DNA of 64,000 nt from a bacterium (GTDB lineage Bacteria; Patescibacteriota; Minisyncoccia; Phycocordibacterales; UBA2100). How positions within the stretch are numbered: the first letter of the stretch is position 1; every line of letters begins with the position of its first letter. The position numbers and the translations under genes are program-made. The stretch covers positions 82,600-146,599 of the forward strand of contig JAEUQT010000003.1 in the NCBI GenBank assembly GCA_016789445.1, in the 5' to 3' direction. This document shows, one piece after another, positions 36,942-51,052 of the stretch. The notes beneath the pieces were generated by a model. That model made no database searches. It was not told the origin of the DNA and saw nothing but the letters and a program-made list of their open reading frames with translations.

Positions 36942-37982
36942 CTACCTCCGACGCGTCTTTTTGCGCCTGAGTTCCTTCCGCATCGCGGCTACTGCCGAGA
37001 CGTTCCGCCCGATCTGCTCCGCGATGTCCTCATCGCTGAGGGATTTGTCCTCGAGGAGCTTCACGTGACCAGCCGGCCACTCAGTACCGTGGCTTCGTGC
37101 CGTCGGCACGTTGCCGCTGCTCTTGCGGATGTTGATACCGAGCGAGACACGTCCACCGGCAGAAATCCGATCGCGGATTCGCCGCGAGGCTTCTTCCAGT
37201 TCGAGATGCACCTGCATCAGCCGTCCACGTTCTTCAGGCGTCATCTCTGCACTCTCGATGAGAGCGAACGCCTGCTCGACGCTTTGGCGGATGCCTGCAA
37301 CACGCAGACGGTACTTCTGCACCGTCATCTCGCGCGGCTTCCCTGCCTGGCCGACATAGCGAGCCTGCCGTTCACGGATAAGCTGCGTTGTCTCACCGGC
37401 AGCAAGCCCTTGTCGCACGACTTCCTGTGCGACCGCGACCTGCTCTTCGCCGACGATGATGTTCGCGAGAACGACCGCCGTACTTGGCGCAAGAGAACCT
37501 TCCGCGACAAGATGCTGGACACTCGGAGCGAGATCGAGAAGCTTGAGCCGATTCCGAATATGCGAGACGTTTTTACTTAACCGCTTCGCGATATCCGACG
37601 GCTGCAACCCGTACTCCTGGAAGAGCCAGAGGTACGCATTCGCTTCTTCGAGAGGATCGAGTTCTTCACGCTGCACGTTTTCCGCAAGCGCGAGAACGAC
37701 GATATCGCACGGACTTGAGACGTCGACGATCACGCACGGGATCACGGTGAAGCCGCCGGCTCTCGCAGCCCGAAGGCGTCGAGAACCTGCAACGAGGGTG
37801 TAGTACCCGTCACCACGCTCCGACACGATCACGGCCTGCATGAGGCCGTCGCGCATCGATCCTGCCAGCTCGAGAAGCGCCTCTTCCGAGTACTTCTTGC
37901 GCGGCAGGTACGGATCTTCGATGATCCGATCGAGCGCGATGTCACGTAAGTTCCTGCCGACGAACGGCACGATTTCCGCCAT
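36942..37982 (-). CDS. ParB/Srx-fold N-terminal domain protein with a C-terminal HTH (orphan ParB-like); start at MAEIVPFVG
   Basis: ParB N-domain with GxRR box (AGSRRLRAA); C-terminal LSDEDIAEQIGRNVSAVAAMRKEL HTH. Confidence 0.75.
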   Translation of the reverse strand: MAEIVPFVGRNLRDIALDRIIEDPYLPRKKYSEEALLELAGSMRDGLMQAVIVSERGDGYYTLVAGSRRLRAARAGGFTVIPCVIVDVSSPCDIVVLALAENVQREELDPLEEANAYLWLFQEYGLQPSDIAKRLSKNVSHIRNRLKLLDLAPSVQHLVAEGSLAPSTAVVLANIIVGEEQVAVAQEVVRQGLAAGETTQLIRERQARYVGQAGKPREMTVQKYRLRVAGIRQSVEQAFALIESAEMTPEERGRLMQVHLELEEASRRIRDRISAGGRVSLGINIRKSSGNVPTARSHGTEWPAGHVKLLEDKSLSDEDIAEQIGRNVSAVAAMRKELRRKKTRRR

Positions 37983-38087
37983 TAGTTCCTCCTTTCTGTG
38001 CTGAAGGTGACCAAAGACCTTCTGTTTGCATACAACCATTACACTATAGGCGTGTCAAACAAAAGACCGCACCTCGAAAGGTGCGGT

Positions 38088-38945
38088 CTAATTCTCCTGA
38101 TCCGAGCTCCTCAGGAAGGGTCGAAGGTGCTTGATGCGACGCTTGGTCTGCCAGACTTTGATGACGGTATCGTAGGGTATGCCCGCTTTCTCGACGGCAT
38201 TCTCCCAGGTCCCGAAATAACGATACCCGGCCTCCAGCAAGGGACTATCCTCTATCTCCATGTCTCCATGACTCAGAGAATAGCCCGCACGCGCACGCGC
38301 ACGAATGGAAACGATAACGAGCTTCTTAGACCAATACCGCACGATCCATCCTTTCTTGACGCGATCATACGTAAATCCAGTAGCTTCGATCACCGCCTTC
38401 CAACTGCCTTTGAAATGCCGCATCCCCGCCAGATAGAGCGCCTCGTCATCTTTGCGTACCGCGCCGATGTTGAGATCACGACCTGACGCTGCGCGCTCAC
38501 GCATACGCTCGACGACAAGGGCTTTCGACCAGTACGGCTTCGGTTTTGGAAGTCTTTTTCGTACCTCCGCATACGAAAAGCCGCTCGCCTCGATTGCCTT
38601 TTCCAAACTGCCTTCGAACTGACGAAGCGCCATCGATAACAGCGCAGGCTCCTCTCGACGCAGGTCTTTCGAACTGATCGACTTGCCGCTTGCGTGTCGA
38701 TCTTGGATGCGTCGGATGACTTCAGCTCGACGATCGATTGGCCTTTTGACTTTTCTTCGTCGAGGAAGATCAGTGGCACGCGTAATACGCACAGCTTTCT
38801 TCCATCCTTCCGGAAAGAATCGCTGTACGGTCTTCAGCAGTGCAGGATCGCTATTGAGCACATCCAGATACCGCATGGAGAGCCCTGTCTCGATTCGTCG
38901 CCGAATGCGATTCATCGCGACCCGACGCGTGATTCGTCGTGTCAT
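38088..38945 (-). CDS. hypothetical basic protein built from four tandem repeats of roughly 60 aa (F-x-G-[ST]-W-x-x-A-[IV]-E-x-[AS]-G-[FI]-x-Y)
   Basis: Repeats read directly: FPEGWKKAVRITRAT / FEGSLEKAIEASGFSY / FKGSWKAVIEATGFTY / FGTWENAVEKAGIPY. Confidence 0.55.
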   Translation of the reverse strand: MTRRITRRVAMNRIRRRIETGLSMRYLDVLNSDPALLKTVQRFFPEGWKKAVRITRATDLPRRRKVKRPIDRRAEVIRRIQDRHASGKSISSKDLRREEPALLSMALRQFEGSLEKAIEASGFSYAEVRKRLPKPKPYWSKALVVERMRERAASGRDLNIGAVRKDDEALYLAGMRHFKGSWKAVIEATGFTYDRVKKGWIVRYWSKKLVIVSIRARARAGYSLSHGDMEIEDSPLLEAGYRYFGTWENAVEKAGIPYDTVIKVWQTKRRIKHLRPFLRSSDQEN

Positions 38946-39990: not shown

Positions 39991-40233
39991 ATGACACAGC
40001 AATCGGTGGATCCCGAACGGAAAGCGACTCCTATCGCATCGGGATCAATGGCCATCGCTTTAGCTTCAATTCGCAATGCAGAAGCATATTTGCGCTGGCA
40101 AGGAGCACAGTGGGTTATTGCACTCAATCTCTCGGCATTCGTCGCTCTTCTCTATCGCCTTTTAGCTAAGCCCGATATTGCAGAGATAATCGTACTTGCT
40201 ATAGGCTGTATAGGCGTCGCATCACTCGATTAG
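39991..40233 (+). CDS. small membrane protein (80 aa), first gene of a three-gene plus-strand unit
   Basis: ggagtg RBS; two TM helices; AT-rich region. Confidence 0.4.
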   Translation: MTQQSVDPERKATPIASGSMAIALASIRNAEAYLRWQGAQWVIALNLSAFVALLYRLLAKPDIAEIIVLAIGCIGVASLD

Positions 40234-40245
40234 GAGTGGTATAGC

Positions 40246-40491
40246 GTGGTGCGAAGAAACGGCCGTCTCTTCGATTTCTGGAATCGGAAATTTGAAGAGC
40301 ACGAACGACTGAACGGAATCGATGGAGGAATTACGGTGTTTACAGCACCGGAATACCATAATCTTTCAGGTTCGCGTGAACGTCTGCAAAGACGACTTGA
40401 ACGGATCTCGGTAATATTCGTTGTTGGGTGGTCTGCTGGTGCTATAGTGTTTATAACTCTTGCATTCGTCGCCTTGAAAGGAGGTTCATGA
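40246..40491 (+). CDS. small membrane protein (81 aa, GTG start)
   Basis: taggagtgg RBS; C-terminal TM helix. Confidence 0.4.
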   Translation: MVRRNGRLFDFWNRKFEEHERLNGIDGGITVFTAPEYHNLSGSRERLQRRLERISVIFVVGWSAGAIVFITLAFVALKGGS

Positions 40492-40607
40492 TGAAATCGC
40501 ATGAGATCTTTGCGGTTACGGTCGGAACAATTGGCGTTCTTCTGATGTTTGTGACCCCTGCGCTAATCAGCGCATGGAATCAGTGGAAGGAACGCAAGGA
40601 TCGTTAA
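40488..40607 (+). CDS. small membrane protein (about 39 aa); start overlaps the previous stop (ATGATGA)
   Basis: Hand-translated MMKSHEIFAVTVGTIGVLLMFVTPALISAWNQWKERKDR; terminator follows. Confidence 0.3.
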   Translation: MMKSHEIFAVTVGTIGVLLMFVTPALISAWNQWKERKDR

Positions 40608-40617
40608 CCCACTTCTT

Positions 40618-40648
40618 CAGCCAGCTTCAATCGAAGCTGGCTTTTTTC
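40618..40648. terminator. intrinsic terminator (agccagcttc aatc gaagctggct tttttctt)
   Basis: Hairpin plus T-tract. Confidence 0.6.
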
Positions 40649-41344
40649 TTATCCAAGAAGTCCCCAGCCAGTTGATTCGCCTCGATCTTTCGCGCAGAGG
40701 AGCTTGAGGGTCCTCCCTTCCTTTACAAATCGGAGGCCGCTTTGGATTTTGCACTTCGCGCAGCGGCCTTTGGCCTTCTCCCATGCCGCCGCTTTGGCGG
40801 CGGCCCCGAGGTAGCGTTCTTCTTCAAGCGCCGCGTCTTTGTCGCGGCGCGCTCGGTCGGCGGGCAGTAGAGAGAATTTGAAAATCTTGCGGCCGTTTTC
40901 GGTCACACCCGCCGCATCCACGAGATCAAAGATGCCTTTGTCGAACCACACGCCTGGATCGAGCTTCTCATACACCTGTATCTGGAGCGGCTCTTTGCGT
41001 ACGCCGTCCTTGAAGGCGTTCGCCGCTTTATAGAATTTCCCGTTCTCGGTCAGCTTGTCGCCGCCATACATGAGGAGCTGGTCGTTCGATTTCCCTTGCG
41101 TTTCTTTCGTCGTCGAATCGTGTCCCTCGAAGGAATAGATCTGCTTTTTCGGATTCCATTCGTCGCGGAACTCGCCATCGTCTTTCTGCAGGACGAGGAA
41201 GACGCTCAGGAGTTCTCCCTGATGGCGGAAGTTCATGCTCTTCTGCAGCATGATGCCCTCGCGCTCCATCAGCTCGTTGGCCGAGAGGATAGACGTCGCG
41301 CGTTGTGGCATGTGCACATCGCCTAAGAAATTGGACATCGGCAC
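40649..41344 (-). CDS. hypothetical protein with a possible SRA/YDG-like (PUA-fold) N-terminal region and a C-terminal Cys4 zinc-ribbon-like segment lacking His
   Basis: Weak motif resemblance only (LSVFLVL..DDG, MYGGDK, FDKGIFDL resembling the SRA YDG region); C-terminal CAKCK...LC. Confidence 0.35.
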   Translation of the reverse strand: MPMSNFLGDVHMPQRATSILSANELMEREGIMLQKSMNFRHQGELLSVFLVLQKDDGEFRDEWNPKKQIYSFEGHDSTTKETQGKSNDQLLMYGGDKLTENGKFYKAANAFKDGVRKEPLQIQVYEKLDPGVWFDKGIFDLVDAAGVTENGRKIFKFSLLPADRARRDKDAALEEERYLGAAAKAAAWEKAKGRCAKCKIQSGLRFVKEGRTLKLLCAKDRGESTGWGLLG

Positions 41345-41419
41345 AGCGTATCACTCATGTAAGCATGTTGCTAAAACAATCTTTCATTGTATAATGATTA
41401 CAGATGAAAGGAGGTTCCT

Positions 41420-42058
41420 ATGCGTCATCTTACGAAACACGCGCGTGAGCGCATCCTGCTTCGTACGGAATTGAAGCCTGAGAATGTATTGCAGCTAATC
41501 AATGACAGTGCCGCAATCAGTTTGGGCAAAGGTGAAATCTTCGAATACCTGCTCTTTTTCTCCCCTTTCGACCTCTGCTGCAAGATCGCGGTTGTGAGTC
41601 ATGATTGGGGAAATATCGTGTCTGTTTGGGACGAAGATTTCGATCTACCTGAAGGGATACTTGTGCCGACCGAACGCGACCGTTACAAGGCCAAGAAACT
41701 CTATCAAGCATTCACGTTCCGCCGTATCGGTGAAAGACAGCAAACGGCGGAAGGTCTGCCTTATTATTCGGCAACGATCGATGTCGTAGTCGAGGCCAAG
41801 ACTGTCTATTCGCACGCTGCCGGTGAAATCACGCGTTCTCAAGGCACATTCAAGAAAGAATGCATCAAAGCAATCTGGAAAGAATTGTCGACGCTTGCTA
41901 GCATCACTGAAGAGAATCGCGACAAGCTCCACGGATTCGTGCAATACCAGATCTCACTTAAGGCATTGAACGGCATTCAGGACTTCAAGCGCTACGCTAT
42001 CTCTCATAAAAAGGTCCTCCGAAAAGGAAGACCGATCACTCGACAGGCTGCCGAATAG
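41420..42058 (+). CDS. hypothetical protein (212 aa) with a DUF4258-like N-terminus (LTKHARERI...)
   Basis: aaaggagg RBS and a TATAAT -10 element upstream; lower GC than the flanks. Confidence 0.5.
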   Translation: MRHLTKHARERILLRTELKPENVLQLINDSAAISLGKGEIFEYLLFFSPFDLCCKIAVVSHDWGNIVSVWDEDFDLPEGILVPTERDRYKAKKLYQAFTFRRIGERQQTAEGLPYYSATIDVVVEAKTVYSHAAGEITRSQGTFKKECIKAIWKELSTLASITEENRDKLHGFVQYQISLKALNGIQDFKRYAISHKKVLRKGRPITRQAAE

Positions 42059-42072
42059 GCAGCCTGTTTTCT

Positions 42073-42555: not shown

Positions 42556-42565
42556 ATTCTTAAGA

Positions 42566-42853
42566 TTATCCGAAAAGTTCTGAATGGCTGCCAATGTCTA
42601 TGAGCACCAATATCAAGACTTCGTTTCTCACTTCGTACACCAACAAGAGATCACCTTTGATATGACATTCGCGATATCGCTTTACATCCCCAGTCAGCTG
42701 ATGGTCTCGATACGATGCCGGCAGCGACTTGCGCGCAGCGAGAGACAGAATCACATCTTCGAGCTTTTTCATCAGGGCAGGTTTCAATGTCCCGGATTTC
42801 TTCAGTTTCCGGAACGATCGTTCGAACTGTTGCGTTCTGACGACGCCGTACAT
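42566..42853 (-). CDS. yafQ: type II toxin, YafQ/RelE-ParE family
   Basis: DHQLTGDVKRYRECHIKGDLLLVY core typical of YafQ. Confidence 0.8.
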   Translation of the reverse strand: MYGVVRTQQFERSFRKLKKSGTLKPALMKKLEDVILSLAARKSLPASYRDHQLTGDVKRYRECHIKGDLLLVYEVRNEVLILVLIDIGSHSELFG

Positions 42854-42860
42854 GCGAGCA

Positions 42861-43109
42861 TTATAGCCCCTTCAACGCATCGCGCGCGCTATACACTTTC
42901 CCCTTCTTCAGAGCATCAGCAACTTCCTTGTCCCATTTCGCTGCTATCGAAGCCATGTTTTTCGTAGGAGTGAATGGCAATCCTTTTTCAAGAGCGACCT
43001 GATGGAGAAATATTTTCACACCCGATGACAAATCGAGACCGACATCACGCAATACCTTGCTTGCCGCTTTCTTGGTTTTCTCTTCGATCCGAATGTTAAG
43101 CGTAGTCAT
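42861..43109 (-). CDS. dinJ: type II antitoxin, DinJ/RelB family; start at MTTLNIRI
   Basis: Ribbon-helix-helix N-terminus (TTLNIRIEEKTKKAASKVL). Confidence 0.8.
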   Translation of the reverse strand: MTTLNIRIEEKTKKAASKVLRDVGLDLSSGVKIFLHQVALEKGLPFTPTKNMASIAAKWDKEVADALKKGKVYSARDALKGL

Positions 43110-43167
43110 ATGTAGAAAGTATATACATTGTATACACATTGTCAATACACTCACATATTACATACGA

Positions 43168-43641
43168 CTAGAATACCACTATCGTTTCAAAATTGGTGAC
43201 GGGCGGCGTGTAATCGGGAGAGGTTTCTTCGAAGGTGCGCTTTTGGACGAGATACTTCCCATCCTGCGCGACGATCTTAAAATAGTGCCCGAGACCTGCG
43301 TAGTAGCAGATGATCTGATCGGATTTCGGATACACGTCGTCGTCCGGTGATGGATACGTATTGCAGGTGCCATCGACGGTGTCGATCTCCTTCGTGCGCG
43401 AAGTGCCGTCGAAATACATGGCGCGCAGCGTGATCTTCGTGCGCGGGATCTCCCCGCTCTCGTCGGTCGAGTAGCTCCAACTGAATGTCGGCTCCCCGTG
43501 CGGCACTTCCTCTCCCTGAATCACCGGCTCAACCGCCACATCCACCACAGGCCAGAACGCGTTATATCCCGCAATCACGACAACTGCAGCAACCACGAAT
43601 GCGAGGAGGTATCTGAGTGCTGTGGGCATATGGAGGCTCAT
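43168..43641 (-). CDS. hypothetical membrane-anchored secreted protein (157 aa) sharing the 2-Cys domain of the 27388 gene
   Basis: FDGTS...VDGTC...ICYYAGLG aligns with GTS...MDGSC...ICWWAGAG. Confidence 0.5.
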   Translation of the reverse strand: MSLHMPTALRYLLAFVVAAVVVIAGYNAFWPVVDVAVEPVIQGEEVPHGEPTFSWSYSTDESGEIPRTKITLRAMYFDGTSRTKEIDTVDGTCNTYPSPDDDVYPKSDQIICYYAGLGHYFKIVAQDGKYLVQKRTFEETSPDYTPPVTNFETIVVF

Positions 43642-43893
43642 TTAATCACCTTTCTCACCAAGCTGCTCATCGATGCTGGTCGCGGCCTCCTTAACGTCTT
43701 CCAATTCCGAACGTATATCCTCCATCTGGCTGCTTAGCTCACCCTCCTCCTGTTCGATCTTAGCTTCAATCAATTCGAGCTTTTCCATCACATCCGCATG
43801 TTGCGATTCTTGCGCGTCAATCAGCTTTTCCATGAGCTCGGAGAGCGCGTCAACATCCTGACGGAGCTTCTTGATCTCGGGATTATCGAACAT
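43642..43893 (-). CDS. hypothetical acidic coiled-coil protein (83 aa), abuts the 43168 gene (TAA then ATG)
   Basis: Heptad-like E/L/I pattern. Confidence 0.45.
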   Translation of the reverse strand: MFDNPEIKKLRQDVDALSELMEKLIDAQESQHADVMEKLELIEAKIEQEEGELSSQMEDIRSELEDVKEAATSIDEQLGEKGD

Positions 43894-43926
43894 GGCTATA
43901 GTATGTACCTTTTATAATTTAAAGTC

Positions 43927-44262
43927 TTATTTTTGCTCCCCTCCATCTTCGCCGAATAAATGATCCCCAAAAATTGGTCTCGTACGTGGATTCTTAAAAA
44001 CGGACGTTGGATCTTTATCCTCTTCTACAGTTAGGAGAAAGAGGCCTCCGGTATCGAGAAGAAAACCATTCATGTGCTCCTCGATTACTCTCTTACCTAC
44101 AGCATCAGATGCCGTCTTTTTGTCGGGAGCTTCGAGAAAATAGTGCCATAGCACCGTTCCTTCAGTCGGGTGAATGATTTCGGCATAGAATTTCATAAGT
44201 TCATGCTGGCACAAATGCTTGGAAAGTATTGTATGCTCAGATTGCGGCAATAAACCTGCCAA
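43927..44262 (-). CDS. hypothetical protein (111 aa) immediately downstream of hsdR
   Basis: ORF-track ORF; low GC like the R-M island. Confidence 0.4.
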   Translation of the reverse strand: MAGLLPQSEHTILSKHLCQHELMKFYAEIIHPTEGTVLWHYFLEAPDKKTASDAVGKRVIEEHMNGFLLDTGGLFLLTVEEDKDPTSVFKNPRTRPIFGDHLFGEDGGEQK

Positions 44263-44291
44263 TTTTTCCGCTCAGTTGCAAATATAGAACC

Positions 44292-47200
44292 TTAACGTCG
44301 AAGTATTGAACCTTCAGAAATGCCAATGAATCTCTCGAAGAAGCTCGTCAATTTATTCAAGACACTATCACGTTTCCGCGAGCGCTCTCCACTTGGGGAG
44401 AAGCGAGAAACTGGTGGCAGCACCTTTGTGAGTGCTGTCCCCGTTATGGCGACTGCGCCGTCGCGAAAGGCATTTTGAACGAAATTATAGGTGGCATCAG
44501 GATCCAGATTTTCATCCTTGATGATTTGGTCCAATTCTTCCACTTTCTTTTCCTCCACATACTTCTGCCAATCCTCGTCCACGACCGAATTCGCATCGAG
44601 CGATGAAATGAATTTGTTGATGAGGTCTTTCTTGTTGCGCAATTCAACGCTCGAATCGATTGCCTTGTTGATGTCAATCAAGAGCTCTTTGTTCTTAGTA
44701 TGGTCTTCGTGGTACTTCTTGATGAGGGCAAGGATGTAATCGATATTGATCTCGATCTGCTTAATGAGCTCCATCTCAAACACCAGATCGTCGTTGATGT
44801 TCTCTTTCTCCTTGTCGATGCTGGTACGGAACTCGTTGTACAGATCAATGTACATGCTGTGGTAGTCCTGCAGATCTCGCGCAGAAAGTATTTCGTTTCC
44901 CGTGAACTGGTCGAAGGTCACCAAGATATTGCGCAACCGCAATACAGCGCCGTACAGCTTTATGAAGTCCTTTTGGCTCTGTTCACCCATAATGCGCTCG
45001 CCCACAGGAAACTTTTCCAGAAGTTCGTCTACCAAGCTCTTGTAGCCCCGCACCTCCTTGTTACGTTCCGTGTAGCCGTTGTAGTAGTCCTCGTATGCTT
45101 TGAGAAGCACGATGCCGCTCGCTTCCTTGTCTCCGAAAAGAGCGATTGCTTCGTTGGTAGCTTTCTCTAAATTGCGGAAGCAGACGATATTGCCGAAGGT
45201 CTTCACGCTGTTAAGGATGCGATTCGTACGGGAATATGCCTGCAGTAGCCCGTGGAGTCGGAGATTCTTGTCCACCCACAGCGTGTTGAGTGTGGTGGCA
45301 TCAAAACCGGTCAGAAACATATTGACCACAATGAGAATATCAATCTCGCGACTCTTTACGCGCTCACTCACGTCTTTATAGTAGTTTTGGAACTTATCTG
45401 ACGAAGTATCGTACGATGTGCCGAACATCGCATTGTAGTCGGCGATAGCACTCTCTAAGAACTCACGCGAACTAGCATCAAGTCCGCTAGTGTCTTCCGA
45501 GTTTTCATCAACCATCCCGTCGGCATCCTCGTCGTTGACGCCAAAACTGAAGATTGTGGCGACCTTCAATTTTTTGTCACTGGGAACGTCCGCGAGCTGT
45601 TTTTTGAACTCGGCATAATACTTCTTTGCGACATCAATGGAAGACACCGCGAATATTGAATTGAAACCGGCAAGGCGTCTGTCTTTCAGCTTGTAAAAGC
45701 TATTGCGCTTTGTCTTTTGGTCGAAGTGTTCGCGTATATAACGCACGATATTCTCGAGTCGTTCAGGCGAAGCGAGAGCTGCCTCACGATCTATACCGCT
45801 CACTTGCTTGTCCTCGATGTCTTCCGCTTCGCGGATTGTGGAGACGTAATCAACCTTGAAGGGCAACACGTTCTTGTCCGCAATCGCGTCCACAATCGTA
45901 TACGTATGGAGCTTGGTGCCGAATGCCTGCTCGGTGGTCTTTAGGTCTGGACGACCACCAGACGAGGCGTTTGCGGCAAATATTGGCGTACCCGTGAAGC
46001 CAAATAGGTGGTAGTTATTAAATGCCTTGGTGATAGCGGCATGCATGTCGCCGAACTGCGAACGATGACACTCATCAAAAATAAGCGCTACATGCCCATC
46101 AAATATGGTGTGTCCGCTGTTGCGCGCTATGAAGCGGTCGAGCTTTTGGATGGTGGTAACGATGATGCGAGCCTTAGAGTCTTCAAGCTGCTTTTTCAAT
46201 ATTGATGTCGAGGTGTTGCTGTTCGCCGCTCCTTTCTCAAACTTGTCATACTCACGCATTGTCTGATAGTCGAGATCCTTGCGGTCTACGATGAAAAGGA
46301 CCTTGTCGATGTACGACAATTTGCTGGCAAGTTGTGCTGCCTTGAAGCTGGTGAGCGTTTTACCCGATCCAGTGGTATGCCAGATGTATCCACCTGCCTC
46401 TACCGTGCCTAGCTTTTTATAGTTGGTACTTACCTCGATGCGGTTCAAAATGCGCTCTGTAGCCACTATTTGATACGGGCGCATAACCAGCAGTTGGTGG
46501 TCGGTCGTGAACACGCAATAGCGTGTGAGGACATTGAGGAGCGTATGCTTGGCAAAAAACGTCTTAGCAAAGTCCATGAGGTCAGCAATCGGCTTGTTGG
46601 TCGCATCTGCCCACCAACTGGTAAACTCAAAGCTGCTGCTCGAACGCTTACCACGCTTTGCTGCGCCTTCGTTTGCTTCCTTGATATGCTGCCAGCGAGT
46701 CGTATTGCTGTAATACTTCGTATGCGTGCCATTCGAGATAACAAAAAGCTGGATGTATTCATAAAGCCCCGAAGCCGCCCAGAAGCTCTCGCGCTGATAG
46801 CGATTAATTTGGTTGAATGCTTCTTGAATAGCCACCCCACGACGTTTGAGTTCAATGTGGACTAACGGCAAGCCGTTCACGAGGATGGTCACGTCATAGC
46901 GATTCGCGCGCGCACCATCCTCGGTCGCGTACTGATTTATGACCTGTAACGTGTTGTCATGCACGTTGTCTTTACGGAGTAGGTAGATGTTCTTTGTGGA
47001 GCCATCATCCCGTGTGAGATTTTTTATGTAGTCCTCTTGAATGGTTGCTGTCTTTTCTTCAATGCTCTGGTTAGGGTTGGCTATTTCACCCTTAAAGAAC
47101 CGTTCCCACTCCTTGTCGGTAAAGATGTAATCGTTGAGCTTCTCAAGCTGGGTGCGGAGGTTTGCAATGAGGTCGTCTTCGCTTGTGATGGGGAGGCAAC

Positions 47201-47354
47201 CATAGGCCTGGGATTCGAGCTGCTCGATAAACGCACGTTCAAGCTCCGCTTCGCTCTGATAGTGTTCCGCGCGGTTCTTGTCCGGCGTGTATTCAGCTAC
47301 GACGGTGCTCTGCGCGTTCTCGGCAACTAAATTGTATTTGTTATTAACTGACAT
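44292..47354 (-). CDS. hsdR: type I restriction enzyme R subunit (HsdR)
   Basis: N-terminal nuclease region, SF2 helicase motifs (TGSGKT, DECH), C-terminal domain; 1020 aa. Confidence 0.95.
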   Translation of the reverse strand: MSVNNKYNLVAENAQSTVVAEYTPDKNRAEHYQSEAELERAFIEQLESQAYGCLPITSEDDLIANLRTQLEKLNDYIFTDKEWERFFKGEIANPNQSIEEKTATIQEDYIKNLTRDDGSTKNIYLLRKDNVHDNTLQVINQYATEDGARANRYDVTILVNGLPLVHIELKRRGVAIQEAFNQINRYQRESFWAASGLYEYIQLFVISNGTHTKYYSNTTRWQHIKEANEGAAKRGKRSSSSFEFTSWWADATNKPIADLMDFAKTFFAKHTLLNVLTRYCVFTTDHQLLVMRPYQIVATERILNRIEVSTNYKKLGTVEAGGYIWHTTGSGKTLTSFKAAQLASKLSYIDKVLFIVDRKDLDYQTMREYDKFEKGAANSNTSTSILKKQLEDSKARIIVTTIQKLDRFIARNSGHTIFDGHVALIFDECHRSQFGDMHAAITKAFNNYHLFGFTGTPIFAANASSGGRPDLKTTEQAFGTKLHTYTIVDAIADKNVLPFKVDYVSTIREAEDIEDKQVSGIDREAALASPERLENIVRYIREHFDQKTKRNSFYKLKDRRLAGFNSIFAVSSIDVAKKYYAEFKKQLADVPSDKKLKVATIFSFGVNDEDADGMVDENSEDTSGLDASSREFLESAIADYNAMFGTSYDTSSDKFQNYYKDVSERVKSREIDILIVVNMFLTGFDATTLNTLWVDKNLRLHGLLQAYSRTNRILNSVKTFGNIVCFRNLEKATNEAIALFGDKEASGIVLLKAYEDYYNGYTERNKEVRGYKSLVDELLEKFPVGERIMGEQSQKDFIKLYGAVLRLRNILVTFDQFTGNEILSARDLQDYHSMYIDLYNEFRTSIDKEKENINDDLVFEMELIKQIEINIDYILALIKKYHEDHTKNKELLIDINKAIDSSVELRNKKDLINKFISSLDANSVVDEDWQKYVEEKKVEELDQIIKDENLDPDATYNFVQNAFRDGAVAITGTALTKVLPPVSRFSPSGERSRKRDSVLNKLTSFFERFIGISEGSILRR

Positions 47355-48552
47355 ATTCGGGGAAGGTTAAGAGCTTGCCTCGATAGTATTCGTACTGTTT
47401 GCGCCGTGCCGAGATTTCCGCCGGGAGACCTTCGGATTTGTCATTCACAAGCGCATCAAACTTGTCCAGAATTGACACAATATGTTCTTGCTCTTCCTCT
47501 GACGGAACTGGTACGGGTATCTTGTTGAGGTTTGTTTTGTTGAGCTTTGGTTGTGCTCCTCCGCTGACATAAGATCGTAAATCGATAGAATTCAAATAGA
47601 TCTCAATCAGACGTCGCATTGCATAACTCTCAAACTTAAGAACATGAGCGTGGTTATTGACCCAGGTCTTTCCTGAAATCGAAAAAGCGATTGGCGTCGT
47701 TCTTGCAAGAAGATTGGCTCCATCTTCTGAAACAAGTAAGTAGTCACCCTCAAATATGTAGTCGCTAACATAGTCAACAATGCCGGACGCCCCATAGTAA
47801 GGAACGTTTCCAGCCGTCCGTGCTGATCGCGTGACTGGTTTACGCTTTGAGTCTAAGTTGATGGAAATTCTATCGAGCGTCGTCCATCTTACTCTCTCAC
47901 TCTCGTTAAACGTCAAGAGCTCAGAACGATAATGCTCGTATTGCTTCCCTCTCGCTTCTAACTCTGCTTCTAACTCTGCTTCTAACTCTGTAAAAGCATC
48001 GAGGATGCTTGCAATCTCCTGCTGGATTTCAAGTGGCGGAACGGGAATTTTGATTGATGCCAATGTTGCCATTCGTACTCCTTTAAGCGTACTGCCGACC
48101 GATTGACTTTGATACTGGTCCTTTGCGATGTCTGAACCAAGGATATACATCAAATACCTTGGCAATATTGTTTCTTGCTTGGGTTTTATGATGAAGACAC
48201 TTTCACTGCAATTCCAGTTGTTTGTCGGAATATCTGCCAATGCAACTTTTCCAATAGTTCCAATACCAGAAAACAGCACGTCGTTCAATTCCAAGTCAGA
48301 GCGGTTCTGAATTATTCTTACAGCTTCATCATTAATCTTATCTGTCTTGTCACTGAACTGAACCTTACCAGAAGTAATCTCCTTGACCGTTACATAAAAA
48401 TTGGTTGCGTCGGGCGTATTCAATCTGAAATTCTGGCGCGGATTCAATCCTGTCTTAATTGATTTTGTGATAACTCCCAACTCCCTAAACTCCACACCTT
48501 TCGAGCATTTTTCAGCAATCAACTTTTCAATTTGACTCTGGTGTTTGGTCAT
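47344..48552 (-). CDS. hsdS: type I restriction-modification specificity subunit (HsdS)
   Basis: Two target-recognition domains separated by a central conserved helical region; overlaps hsdR by 11 nt. Confidence 0.9.
   Translation of the reverse strand: MTKHQSQIEKLIAEKCSKGVEFRELGVITKSIKTGLNPRQNFRLNTPDATNFYVTVKEITSGKVQFSDKTDKINDEAVRIIQNRSDLELNDVLFSGIGTIGKVALADIPTNNWNCSESVFIIKPKQETILPRYLMYILGSDIAKDQYQSQSVGSTLKGVRMATLASIKIPVPPLEIQQEIASILDAFTELEAELEAELEARGKQYEHYRSELLTFNESERVRWTTLDRISINLDSKRKPVTRSARTAGNVPYYGASGIVDYVSDYIFEGDYLLVSEDGANLLARTTPIAFSISGKTWVNNHAHVLKFESYAMRRLIEIYLNSIDLRSYVSGGAQPKLNKTNLNKIPVPVPSEEEQEHIVSILDKFDALVNDKSEGLPAEISARRKQYEYYRGKLLTFPEYVS
47953..47988. repeat. 3 x 12-bp tandem repeat (tgcttctaactc) encoding ELEAELEAELEA in the HsdS central spacer
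   Basis: Copies 2 and 3 identical, copy 1 differs at its first base (3 x 12 nt); in frame. Confidence 0.7.
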
Positions 48553-48554
48553 GG

Positions 48555-50156
48555 TTATTTTTTACCTTCAATATCAGCAACGATAGCGTCGATAGCGTTA
48601 CGGAGTTCGTTTTGGCGAGCGACAATGTTCGCAATACTCTCGTTCAGCTCCTTGATATCAACTACCTCACGAGTGTCTTTTCCGTCCACATAGCTTGAGA
48701 CCGAGATATTGTAGTCGTTCTCCGCAATATCATTGTTGTTCACCAGCGCGGCAAAGTGCTCAACGTCTTCTCGGTCAATAAAGGCATCGAGGATCTTTTT
48801 GCGATTTGTTTCGCTGAGTTTGTTCTTATTGCCACTGCGAACGAACTCGGTCGATGCGTCAATGAAAAACGTCTTATTGTCTTTCTTACTCTTTTTCAGA
48901 ACAATTACGCAGGTCGCAATAGTTGTGCCGAAGAAGAGATCCGGCGGCAGCTGGATTACAGAGTCGATGTAGTTGTTGTCTATGAGATACTTGCGGATCT
49001 TCTGCTCTGCACCACCGCGATAGAGCACGCCAGGGAACTCGACGATGGCTGCCGTGCCGTTCGTCGCAAGCCACGAGAGCATGTGCATTGTGAATGCGAG
49101 ATCCGCTTTGCTCTTAGGCGCGAGTACACCTGCCGGAGAGAAACGGGGGTCGTTGATGAGAATGGGATTAGCGTCACCCTCCCATCGGATTGAGTAGGGA
49201 GGGTTCGATACGATGGCCTCAAATGGCTCATCGTCCCAGTGCTTAGGGTCTGTGAGAGTATCACCATGCGCGATATTGAACTTCTCGTAGTTGATATCGT
49301 GCAAGAACATGTTGATGCGGCATAGATTGAACGTGGTGAGATTGATTTCCTGTCCGAAAAACCCCTGACGTACTTTGTCTTTACTCAGTACCTTGGCGAA
49401 TTTGAGCAACAGCGAACCGGAGCCGCACGCAGGGTCATACACTTTATTGACTTCCTTTTTGCCTACCGTAGTTATCTCTGCCAGTAGCTCGCTTACTTCC
49501 TGTGGCGTAAAGAACTCGCCGCCGGACTTACCGGCGTTGGAGGCGTACATGGTCATGAGGAACTCGTATGCATCGCCGAAAGCATCTATTGAGTTGTCGG
49601 CATAGTCGCCAAAGCGCAAACCCCCTATTGCCTCAAGGAGCTTTGCGAGCTTCTGATTGCGTCTTTCTACGGTGTTGCCCAGCTTGCCGGAGTTAACGTC
49701 GAGGTCGTCGAAAAGTCCCTTGAGGTCATCCTCGCTATCTGCGCCCTTCGCGGAGCTCTCTATGTTGTTGAAGACGCGCTCAAGTGTTTCGTTGAGGTTC
49801 GCGTCATTCCGAGCGTTTTTTGTGACGTTTACGAACAGCTCGCTTGGCAGTATGTAAAAACCTTTCTCTTTTACCGTATCGGCGCGACCAAATTCAGCTT
49901 GTTTATCTGAAAGTGATGCGTAATCAAAATCCTTTTTTCCAGCACGCTGCTCCTCTTCATTGATGTAGCTCTCGAGGTTCTCGCTAATGAAGCGATAGAA
50001 GAGCATTCCAAGCACGTACTGCTTAAAATCCCACCCGTCCACACTGCCACGAAGATCGTTGGCAATCTGCCAAATGGCACGATGCAATTCTGACCGCTCT
50101 TGGTCTTTCGTGACTGCTGAACCTTGTTTGTTCACCATATAGTCGATCTTGATCAT
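48555..50156 (-). CDS. hsdM: type I restriction-modification methyltransferase subunit (HsdM)
   Basis: N-terminal HsdM helical domain (LHRAIWQIANDLRG), N6-adenine MTase motifs including NPPY (VSNPPYS). Start is probably MIKIDY (50156) or MVNKQ (50138); the track extension to 50255 is unlikely. Confidence 0.9.
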   Translation of the reverse strand: MIKIDYMVNKQGSAVTKDQERSELHRAIWQIANDLRGSVDGWDFKQYVLGMLFYRFISENLESYINEEEQRAGKKDFDYASLSDKQAEFGRADTVKEKGFYILPSELFVNVTKNARNDANLNETLERVFNNIESSAKGADSEDDLKGLFDDLDVNSGKLGNTVERRNQKLAKLLEAIGGLRFGDYADNSIDAFGDAYEFLMTMYASNAGKSGGEFFTPQEVSELLAEITTVGKKEVNKVYDPACGSGSLLLKFAKVLSKDKVRQGFFGQEINLTTFNLCRINMFLHDINYEKFNIAHGDTLTDPKHWDDEPFEAIVSNPPYSIRWEGDANPILINDPRFSPAGVLAPKSKADLAFTMHMLSWLATNGTAAIVEFPGVLYRGGAEQKIRKYLIDNNYIDSVIQLPPDLFFGTTIATCVIVLKKSKKDNKTFFIDASTEFVRSGNKNKLSETNRKKILDAFIDREDVEHFAALVNNNDIAENDYNISVSSYVDGKDTREVVDIKELNESIANIVARQNELRNAIDAIVADIEGKK

Positions 50157-50500
50157 TCTAACGCACAAGACTGATTCCCCACCCCAGAATGCTGAGAAAA
50201 AGAACCCAGCTGAGAAATTGCACAAAATGCCCATATGCCCCATGTACAACAGCACTCGCCAAGCGCCACAACGGATATAGCAAAAAGAAAGCTGCCCTCA
50301 GAACTGCATTGAGCAAATATTCCCACCATCGCTGTCTGTACATTGGGGAATCCTACGCCCAAAATGAAGAAACGCCACTGCTTGTGGGCTTGTGCACACC
50401 CCTTGAATTCACTTGATTTTAACGAGGCGCTCGGTTATAATACATGCAAGATCACCACGGAAAACGCCCTTCAAGGCTCGTCCTTGCGGGGTTTTTTCTT

Positions 50501-50986
50501 TCAGCCCCGCTTGGTATATTCGAGTTTCTTACGCAAATCTGACACAAAGGCCAGATAACCCGAATCGAACTTCTTAAGCAAAGCAGAATATTTTGCTTGG
50601 TTCGGGATAAGTAATTTCTCAAACTTCTGCTGCTTGACCAGGTAGTCGACAAGACAATAAAAATCCCCGTCGCCAGTGACGATGACCGCTTTAGAATACT
50701 CATCACGATCGATCATTGCCTGTAGCACAAGCTCTGCGTCACAATTACCCTTTGTAGTCCCGTCCTTATAACGTAATGTGGGTTTGAAAATGAGAATATA
50801 GCCCTTCTCTTGTAGCGATTTATACAAGTCGGCATGTTTCTCGACAAAACCGATGAAAAGATATGCCTTTTCGACCTTATATTTGTCCTTCAAATACCGT
50901 CGGAACCTCAACCAATCAATCTTCCACCCAAGACCCTGGACGGCAAGATTGAGGTTCTGACTGTCGATAAAGGCGTAATTCGCCAT
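50501..50986 (-). CDS. NYN-domain protein (LabA-like); start at MANYAFIDSQN
   Basis: Conserved acidic residues (FIDSQN, DAELV, VIVTGDGDF). Confidence 0.75.
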   Translation of the reverse strand: MANYAFIDSQNLNLAVQGLGWKIDWLRFRRYLKDKYKVEKAYLFIGFVEKHADLYKSLQEKGYILIFKPTLRYKDGTTKGNCDAELVLQAMIDRDEYSKAVIVTGDGDFYCLVDYLVKQQKFEKLLIPNQAKYSALLKKFDSGYLAFVSDLRKKLEYTKRG

Positions 50987-51052
50987 ACGAATTAATCCTA
51001 CGCTCAAAATGAAGAAAATCCACTGTTTTCAGGCTAAAGCCCGAGCCAAGAC

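Follow-up and report, generated by a model that had tools for sequence, protein, structure and literature searches.

A putative nuclease-dead SRA-like-HNH protein and an adjacent, probably inserted gene in a Patescibacteriota genome

The window analyzed here is a stretch of 64,000 nucleotides from a Patescibacteriota genome of the Phycocordibacterales (assembly GCA_016789445.1, contig JAEUQT010000003.1, positions 82,600 to 146,599), and the subject is a divergent pair of genes within it, referred to as gene A and gene B (Table 1). Gene A is probably a nuclease-dead descendant of a type IV (modification-dependent) restriction endonuclease that joined an SRA-like domain to an HNH nuclease, and gene B is probably a separate, recent insert which lies beside it by accident. 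The probability of this reading is put at about 0.62. An earlier note on this DNA had described two open reading frames (ORFs), one of 231 amino acids (aa) on the reverse strand and one of 212 aa on the forward strand; both are present and both are real genes. Homologues and independent gene calls on identical contigs place the start of gene A at an ATG two codons downstream of the GTG (MSNFLG). Residue numbers of gene A follow the 231-aa numbering throughout.

Predicted fold, HNH remnant and conservation of gene A

The predicted structure shows the N-terminal ~150 residues of gene A adopting the SRA fold, a twisted beta pseudobarrel with flanking helices. The figures for gene A by system are 9.6 for KYP, 9.5 for both UHRF1 and TagI, 9.2 for ScoMcrA, 8.9 for LpnPI, 7.9 for MspJI, 6.6 for SauUSI, 6.5 for AspBHI and 5.6 for AbaSI. 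SRA domains hold a flipped base in a pocket made of two aromatic walls and a carboxylate (Y466, D469 and Y478 in UHRF1; Y55, D58 and Y67 in TagI). The candidate pocket residues of gene A are F/Y59, D61 (137 of 139 members) and F/Y72, in a register without support from sequence alignment.

The C-terminal part of gene A is a remnant of an HNH nuclease. The four most divergent members of the family in species-representative genomes (L031-L034) are 42-44% identical to gene A over residues 3-219, with tblastn E values of 1e-50 to 1e-57, and have the N-domain invariants in common with it. After the CxxC these relatives read GLHYDHILPFSRGGRS..N.Q.LCARHNLQK, and the three that were scanned (L031, L032 and L034) score ~30 bits against Pfam HNH (PF01844), for which the cut-off is 21.4 bits. 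The same segment of gene A reads GLRF-VKEGRTLKLLCAKDRGES. Eleven residues containing the general-base His strand and the GG loop (DH...GG) are deleted, and a [H/D]RGE..GLLG tail stands in place of the helix that bears the HN motif. The C-terminus is predicted to consist of two helices and a beta-hairpin with no helix after it. The HNH profile has no match in 47 members of the gene A family, even at E<=10, whereas the intact relatives pass the threshold. The earlier note had placed CAKCK...LC where the HNH finger is expected, without the catalytic His, and this is confirmed, since the HNH-intact relatives align there and the 11-residue segment is deleted in gene A.

Among 139 members, residue 205, at the old catalytic position, varies (R in 87, H in 40, Y in 6 and K in 3) and is Arg in gene A. 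Of the presumed zinc ligands, C195, C198 and C217 are invariant, and the fourth, at residue 220, is His in 96, Asp in 34 and Cys in 8 of the 139 members and Asp in gene A. The family was sampled through the best 120 of 248 matches, which lean to close relatives of gene A, and 137 of the 142 unique sampled sequences are HNH-dead. One sequence (P0090) is an intermediate that reads GLHYGH...N.QMLCAEH and scores 18.7 bits for HNH, just under the threshold. In a midpoint-rooted tree of the N-domain only, the intact clade is apart from the rest and P0090 is nested in the dead clade. The tree and the position of P0090 therefore suggest that the direction was one of decay from an SRA-like-HNH ancestor. 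Together with the identity to L031-L034 they show that gene A shares descent with reader-HNH enzymes.

The gene A family includes 189-248 proteins of ~220-250 aa, which align over their full length and carry no precomputed Pfam domain. Identity among the listed members is at least ~48%. Named homologues are labelled Minisyncoccia, Paceibacterota or Kaiserbacteria, and all 21 loci in GTDB species representatives are in metagenome-assembled genomes of Patescibacteria. Gene A has no Pfam, NCBIfam or PADLOC family match, even at E<=10, and no tblastn match in annotated phage and plasmid records. The invariant or near-invariant residues are D61, W63, G74-H75-D76, Q89, Y93, N101-G102, Y125-E126-K127, G131, W133 and K136 in the N-domain, and K184, W188, G193, C195, C198 and C217 in the C-terminal part. 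Comparison with four orthologues gives a ratio of non-synonymous to synonymous substitution rates (dN/dS) of 0.05-0.18 at saturated dS, and differences within the species are 18-28 synonymous versus 4-8 non-synonymous. Gene A is under strong purifying selection.

Both ends of the protein (residues 1-13 and 227-231) are conserved peptides that are predicted to be disordered and are candidate partner-binding motifs. The N-terminal MSNFLGD, with a predicted local distance difference test (pLDDT) score below 50, is shared by the two clades, while the C-terminal GLLG is confined to the HNH-dead one.

The HNH-intact relatives L031, L032 and L034 are directly downstream of, and co-oriented with, a gene for a SLFN group-3 (DUF2075-type) helicase. 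The helicases have 620-770 aa and a C-terminal S24 peptidase (L031:700-3452, L032:3656-6708, L034:1526-4114). The SLFN-type helicase/S24 gene and the SRA-like-HNH gene could be a two-gene defence unit.

Gene B and its adjacency to gene A

A word-indexed search with gene B returns only gene B itself, and its 90% cluster is a single sequence. Its status as an orphan was overturned by an exhaustive HMMER search of 1.84 billion cluster representatives, which brought the number of relatives to 141 (92 with E<=1e-10). Most relatives have ~200-215 aa and align over the full length, while some of ~100-118 aa match only residues 3-105. The full-length and N-only relatives together indicate that gene B belongs to a real two-domain family. 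Near the start of its N-domain H7 and R15 are invariant and R11 and T16 are near-invariant (alignment A2). DUF4258 (PF14076) is the only Pfam family matched by several members (6 of 56, best E 0.008), and P0222 and P0228 cover model positions 1-69 of 71 with 13-14 bits versus a 25-bit cut-off. DUF4258 is a BECR-fold toxin family of the RelE/ParE superfamily with unknown activity, and fused single-gene toxin-antitoxin forms are known (PMC11980606). Gene B resembles this family in its N-terminal H-x3-R-x3-R signature, its beta-rich core and the collinearity of the weak matches over the 71-position model. It differs in the sub-threshold scores, in having no adjacent antitoxin gene, and in an extra C-terminal domain of ~100 aa which is unlike MqsA or any other known family. 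The N-domain of gene B is possibly of the DUF4258/BECR-type RNase-toxin fold, fused to an unknown C-terminal domain.

Other searches with gene B were negative. Pfam, NCBIfam and PADLOC returned nothing except a noise match to GemA, the C-terminal domain has no Pfam, PDB or PHROG match, the family as a whole has no relative in PHROGs, its profile gave only chance matches to PDB sequences, and tblastn of the N-domain consensus against phage and plasmid records gave no match. No adjacent co-oriented gene that could be a type II toxin-antitoxin partner lies beside gene B, and its relatives are solitary. Gene B as a fusion of a split toxin and antitoxin was also considered and rejected: the C-only sequence P0278, which lies behind a 53-aa ORF, has the look of a fragment, and no C-domain gene follows the N-only genes. 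Judged from its promoter-like site and terminator-like hairpin, gene B is monocistronic. The TATAAT box and ribosome-binding site that had been ascribed to it were both located, and the promoter-like site is in the 81-bp region between the two genes.

Gene B has a foreign G+C content (GC) of 0.490 versus 0.56-0.61 around it. The best reading is that of a foreign gene which was inserted recently and has since spread in the species, or of a very recent single-gene sweep. The insert is not flanked by direct or inverted repeats. Gene B and the intergenic region (41339-42058, 720 bp) do not differ at any nucleotide in nine contigs of the species, which come from different samples; the loci compared were L001-L009 and L045. 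In these contigs, gene A has 28-39 single nucleotide polymorphisms (SNPs) in five and the glyoxalase gene has 8-28 SNPs in several. A tenth strain, which carries P0001, also has gene B.

The earlier note took the two genes for one modification-sensing module. In a two-gene defence system of this kind gene A would read modified DNA and gene B would be the toxin effector, with a control region in common. The genes are adjacent and divergent with a spacer of only 81 bp, they are at the edge of a hypervariable defence hot spot, gene B is beside gene A in every sampled strain of the species, and the N-domain of gene B is weakly toxin-like. However, a relative of gene B was found by tblastn and hidden Markov model (HMM) searches in 0 of the 21 A-family loci of other species, and strains with an 89-92% identical gene A carry other genes at the position of gene B. 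The relatives of gene B that were examined have no A-family neighbour; one is beside an insertion sequence (IS) integrase on a 960-kb contig and another is near rpsJ. The composition differs, with gene A host-like and gene B foreign, and the polymorphism is discordant, as gene A varies among strains and gene B is invariant. Linkage of the two genes in other genomes is thus missing from the A-family loci and B relatives examined. This lack of co-occurrence largely refutes the module, which is judged very improbable, and the adjacency of genes A and B is incidental, an accident of insertion.

Possible role of gene A and competing explanations

As a nuclease-dead reader, gene A would flip a modified base into its SRA-like pocket. 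The base is most likely a 5-substituted cytosine, by analogy with all characterized SRA and SRA-like readers. Gene A would bind DNA, probably as a dimer held by the zinc-ribbon remnant as in TagI, where the HNH part offers the comparison for a dimerizing zinc ribbon (PMC6212794); the remnant may be structural, dimerizing or DNA-contacting. Since it presumably cannot cut, the protein would act by occupancy. It may occlude or silence modified foreign DNA, or it may read the methylation marks of the cell itself. Interference by a reader on its own has a precedent in the SRA domain of ScoA3IV, which alone partly attenuates T4gt infection, although the data are not shown there (PMC6765204).

Gene A is like the SRA-HNH type IV enzymes (TagI, ScoA3IV/Sco5333, TbiR51I, ScoMcrA SBD-SRA-HNH) in architecture and ancestry. 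It differs from them in an N-domain whose sequence is not detectable as SRA, in its compact size (229 aa) and in the restriction of its family to Patescibacteria. In gene A and most of its family the three catalytic residues (His, Asn, His) have been lost too, and so has the alpha-helix of the beta-beta-alpha-Me motif. MspJI, LpnPI, AspBHI, SauUSI, AbaSI and PvuRts1I have SRA-like readers that are recognizable by structure only, fused to PD-(D/E)XK or helicase-nuclease parts, and are active nucleases, whereas the partner domain of gene A appears to be HNH-derived and inactive. In UHRF1/2 and plant SUVH4/5/6/9 the SRA domain is fused to chromatin-modifying domains (RING, SET); gene A has only the zinc-ribbon remnant and no sequence similarity to these proteins.

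Several results weigh against the reading of gene A as a dead SRA-like-HNH enzyme. No sequence method detects SRA in gene A, so the assignment rests on the predicted structure. The SRA profile (PF02182) matches neither gene A nor any of 47 members at E<=10, hhalign of alignment A1 against the UHRF1 SRA domain gives a probability of 0.1%, and the family profile has only chance matches to PDB sequences. As a control, the UHRF1 sequence (100% identical to 3dwh) finds SUVH5 at E 1e-23 and TagI at E 1e-20. The SRA-like character proposed in the earlier note therefore stands for the fold and fails for the sequence. The motifs it quoted (FLVLQKDDG, MYGGDK, WFDKGIF and CAKCK...LLC) are all present, but their motif-by-motif correspondence to SRA did not hold up, as Smith-Waterman local alignment with a shuffle control gave a z of 1.3 and did not recover the proposed register. 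Gene A is thus SRA-like only in its predicted fold, and the reader domains of MspJI, AspBHI, SauUSI and AbaSI are likewise SRA-like in fold alone. The ligand candidates include 5-methylcytosine (5mC), 5-hydroxymethylcytosine (5hmC), another base and even RNA, and the invariant G-H-D beside the presumed pocket is also compatible with an enzymatic active site. The His at position 205 in 40 of 139 members may allow residual or alternative catalysis in some of them, and the true HNH-intact fraction is uncertain because of the bias of the sample. For gene B, neither the protein itself (E<=10) nor the family consensus matches DUF4258, and the matches of its relatives are sub-threshold. The single-sequence AlphaFold2 (AF2) model of gene B has a pLDDT of 34 and is unusable.

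It is quite unlikely that gene A has kept type IV nuclease or nickase activity by way of an unconventional set of catalytic residues in its shortened beta-hairpin and zinc site. The presumed zinc ligands and the basic residues K184, R194 and R/H205 are conserved, His at 205 occurs in the members counted above, and the C-terminal part is also under strong purifying selection. However, this explanation has to contend with the deletion of the DH general-base segment and the GG loop, the absence of the Asn and of the HN..K motif of the helix, a model without an alpha-helix after the hairpin, an HNH profile that is silent where intact relatives pass, and a variable position 205. Loss of the catalytic core could also mean that gene A is a decaying, functionless pseudogene of a restriction enzyme. 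This is extremely unlikely and was rejected on the selection and conservation data: the dN/dS is low, the polymorphism within the species is mostly synonymous, and in both domains the 137 full-length dead members keep invariant residues, the newly conserved GLLG tail among them. In another explanation the SRA-like domain has turned into an enzyme, such as a glycosylase or hydrolase of a modified base, that works on the flipped base by means of G74-H75-D76, Q89, Y93, E126 and K127, and the HNH part has become dispensable. The invariant polar residues of the N-domain are unusually dense and common to the HNH-intact and HNH-dead clades, and the identity within the family is very high. Nevertheless this is very unlikely. 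The HNH-intact relatives keep the same residues, and for them a plain reader role is enough; the structural comparison gave no glycosylase or hydrolase match. Non-enzymatic SRA domains (UHRF1, SUVH) also have strongly conserved pocket motifs, which counts against an enzymatic role as well.

The N-domain may instead bind RNA or a nucleotide, as the YTH, EVE and ASCH domains of the PUA superfamily do, which would make gene A a housekeeping factor of reduced genomes. The host-like composition of gene A, the presence of some loci among translation genes (tuf-rpsJ in L012) and the lack of a conserved defence partner are consistent with this, but it is considered improbable. A further possibility is that gene A is a domesticated restriction enzyme that serves as a host-native epigenetic reader of 5-substituted cytosines, in the DNA of the cell itself or of the organism on which the cell lives, and regulates or partitions DNA rather than destroying it. 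It would then be an independent bacterial replay of the origin proposed for UHRF1 and SUVH. This is unlikely.

If gene A is a dead SRA-like-HNH enzyme, its family would be a new SRA-like family in Patescibacteria that is invisible to sequence methods. The members with an intact HNH are candidates for new type IV restriction enzymes, whose modification specificity might also be new, and could be useful epigenetic reagents. Because the majority of the family is nuclease-dead yet strongly conserved, it may be a natural experiment on a reader-only SRA protein, in occlusion defence or in methylation reading. The intact members, the half-decayed P0090 and the dead members would be a living series of intermediates for the reader-domestication route proposed for eukaryotic SRA proteins. 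The pair is also a caution on guilt by association in defence islands, as the toxin-like neighbour seems to be an unrelated recent insert. No description of the gene A family, or of naturally nuclease-dead bacterial SRA-HNH derivatives, was found in the limited literature searched.

The locus and its neighbours

Table 1. Features of the gene A/gene B locus, in positions of the window
Feature	Position	Strand	Remarks
Gene A	40649..41338	(-)	229 aa from ATG; ORF reaches GTG at 41344 (231 aa, 40649..41344); predicted SRA-like domain and decayed-HNH zinc ribbon
SRA-like (PUA-superfamily) domain of gene A, predicted	40850..41296	(-)	residues ~17-165
C-terminal two helices and beta-hairpin zinc ribbon of gene A (putative HNH remnant)	40679..40834	(-)	residues ~171-222; alignment with HNH-intact relatives, spacing census, column counts
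GC-rich hairpin	40619..40642	(+)	just past the gene A stop, between gene A and convergent small membrane-protein genes; terminator-like scan
Promoter-like site of gene B, TTGCTA-16-TATAAT	41368..41395	(+)	10/12 matches in a scan; chance alone would give 0.8 such sites in the region scanned
Shine-Dalgarno AAAGGAGG of gene B	41407..41414	(+)	5 nt upstream of the gene B ATG; direct reading of the sequence
Gene B	41420..42058	(+)	212 aa; solitary two-domain protein, foreign composition, invariant among strains
N-terminal domain of gene B	41420..41734	(+)	residues ~1-105; alignment A2; weakly DUF4258-like
C-terminal domain of gene B	41735..42034	(+)	residues ~106-205; alignment A2; no known family similar
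Intrinsic-terminator-like hairpin	42042..42068	(+)	11 pairs; overlaps the gene B stop; scan; inverted repeat I6

To the right of gene B are YafQ/RelB, a glyoxalase-family gene and a type I restriction-modification (R-M) system. The defence-gene neighbourhood previously proposed is therefore present, but the distances are 0.5 kb to YafQ/RelB and 2.2 kb to HsdR rather than the 2 kb given. The GC is 0.487 at 40-51 kb versus 0.565-0.576 outside. Placement of the pair in this low-GC island holds for gene B, which has an island-like composition (GC 0.490, GC at third codon positions (GC3) 0.554) and is between two host-like genes. It does not hold for gene A, whose composition is host-typical (GC 0.564, GC3 0.709; genome 0.565), as is that of the flanking response-regulator and glyoxalase genes.

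In relatives with an 89-92% identical gene A, the side with the response regulator and AHSA1 is syntenic and the opposite side is wholly different; gene A thus marks the border of a variable region. Across the 21 loci there is no gene family that regularly adjoins gene A. The commonest neighbours (YgjP-like peptidase, cyclophilin, MazG-like and NYN genes) occur in <=6 of the 21 at varying distances, and were rejected as conserved partners because they look like lineage synteny.

The region to the right of the glyoxalase gene (42560-51000, compared with L001-L008) is a defence hot spot that is hypervariable among strains of one species. Its content by strain includes two different type I R-M systems, GmrSD_N-HNH, DUF2779, an EcoRI-type methylase, a GNAT gene and the presence or absence of DinJ-YafQ.

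To the left of gene A there are three small overlapping ORFs (59-81 aa) with hydrophobic segments at 39991-40607 (+), between the response regulator and gene A. One of them weakly matches 8xMP, a family of octameric membrane proteins (16.9 bits, under the cut-off). A 285-aa protein with internal repeats at 38088-38945 (-) matches the homing-endonuclease-associated HNH_repeat family (PF18780, 26.9 bits). It is adjoined by a 365-aa ParB_N/HTH_ParB protein at 36942-38039 (-), which is an unusual pairing.

One Paceibacterota genome has a gene A homologue between tuf and rpsJ (L012:3943-8801). A relative of the gene B family in another genome, on the P0140 contig, also has rpsJ as its neighbour. 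In reduced genomes of this kind the gap between tuf and rpsJ is a possible hot spot for insertions.
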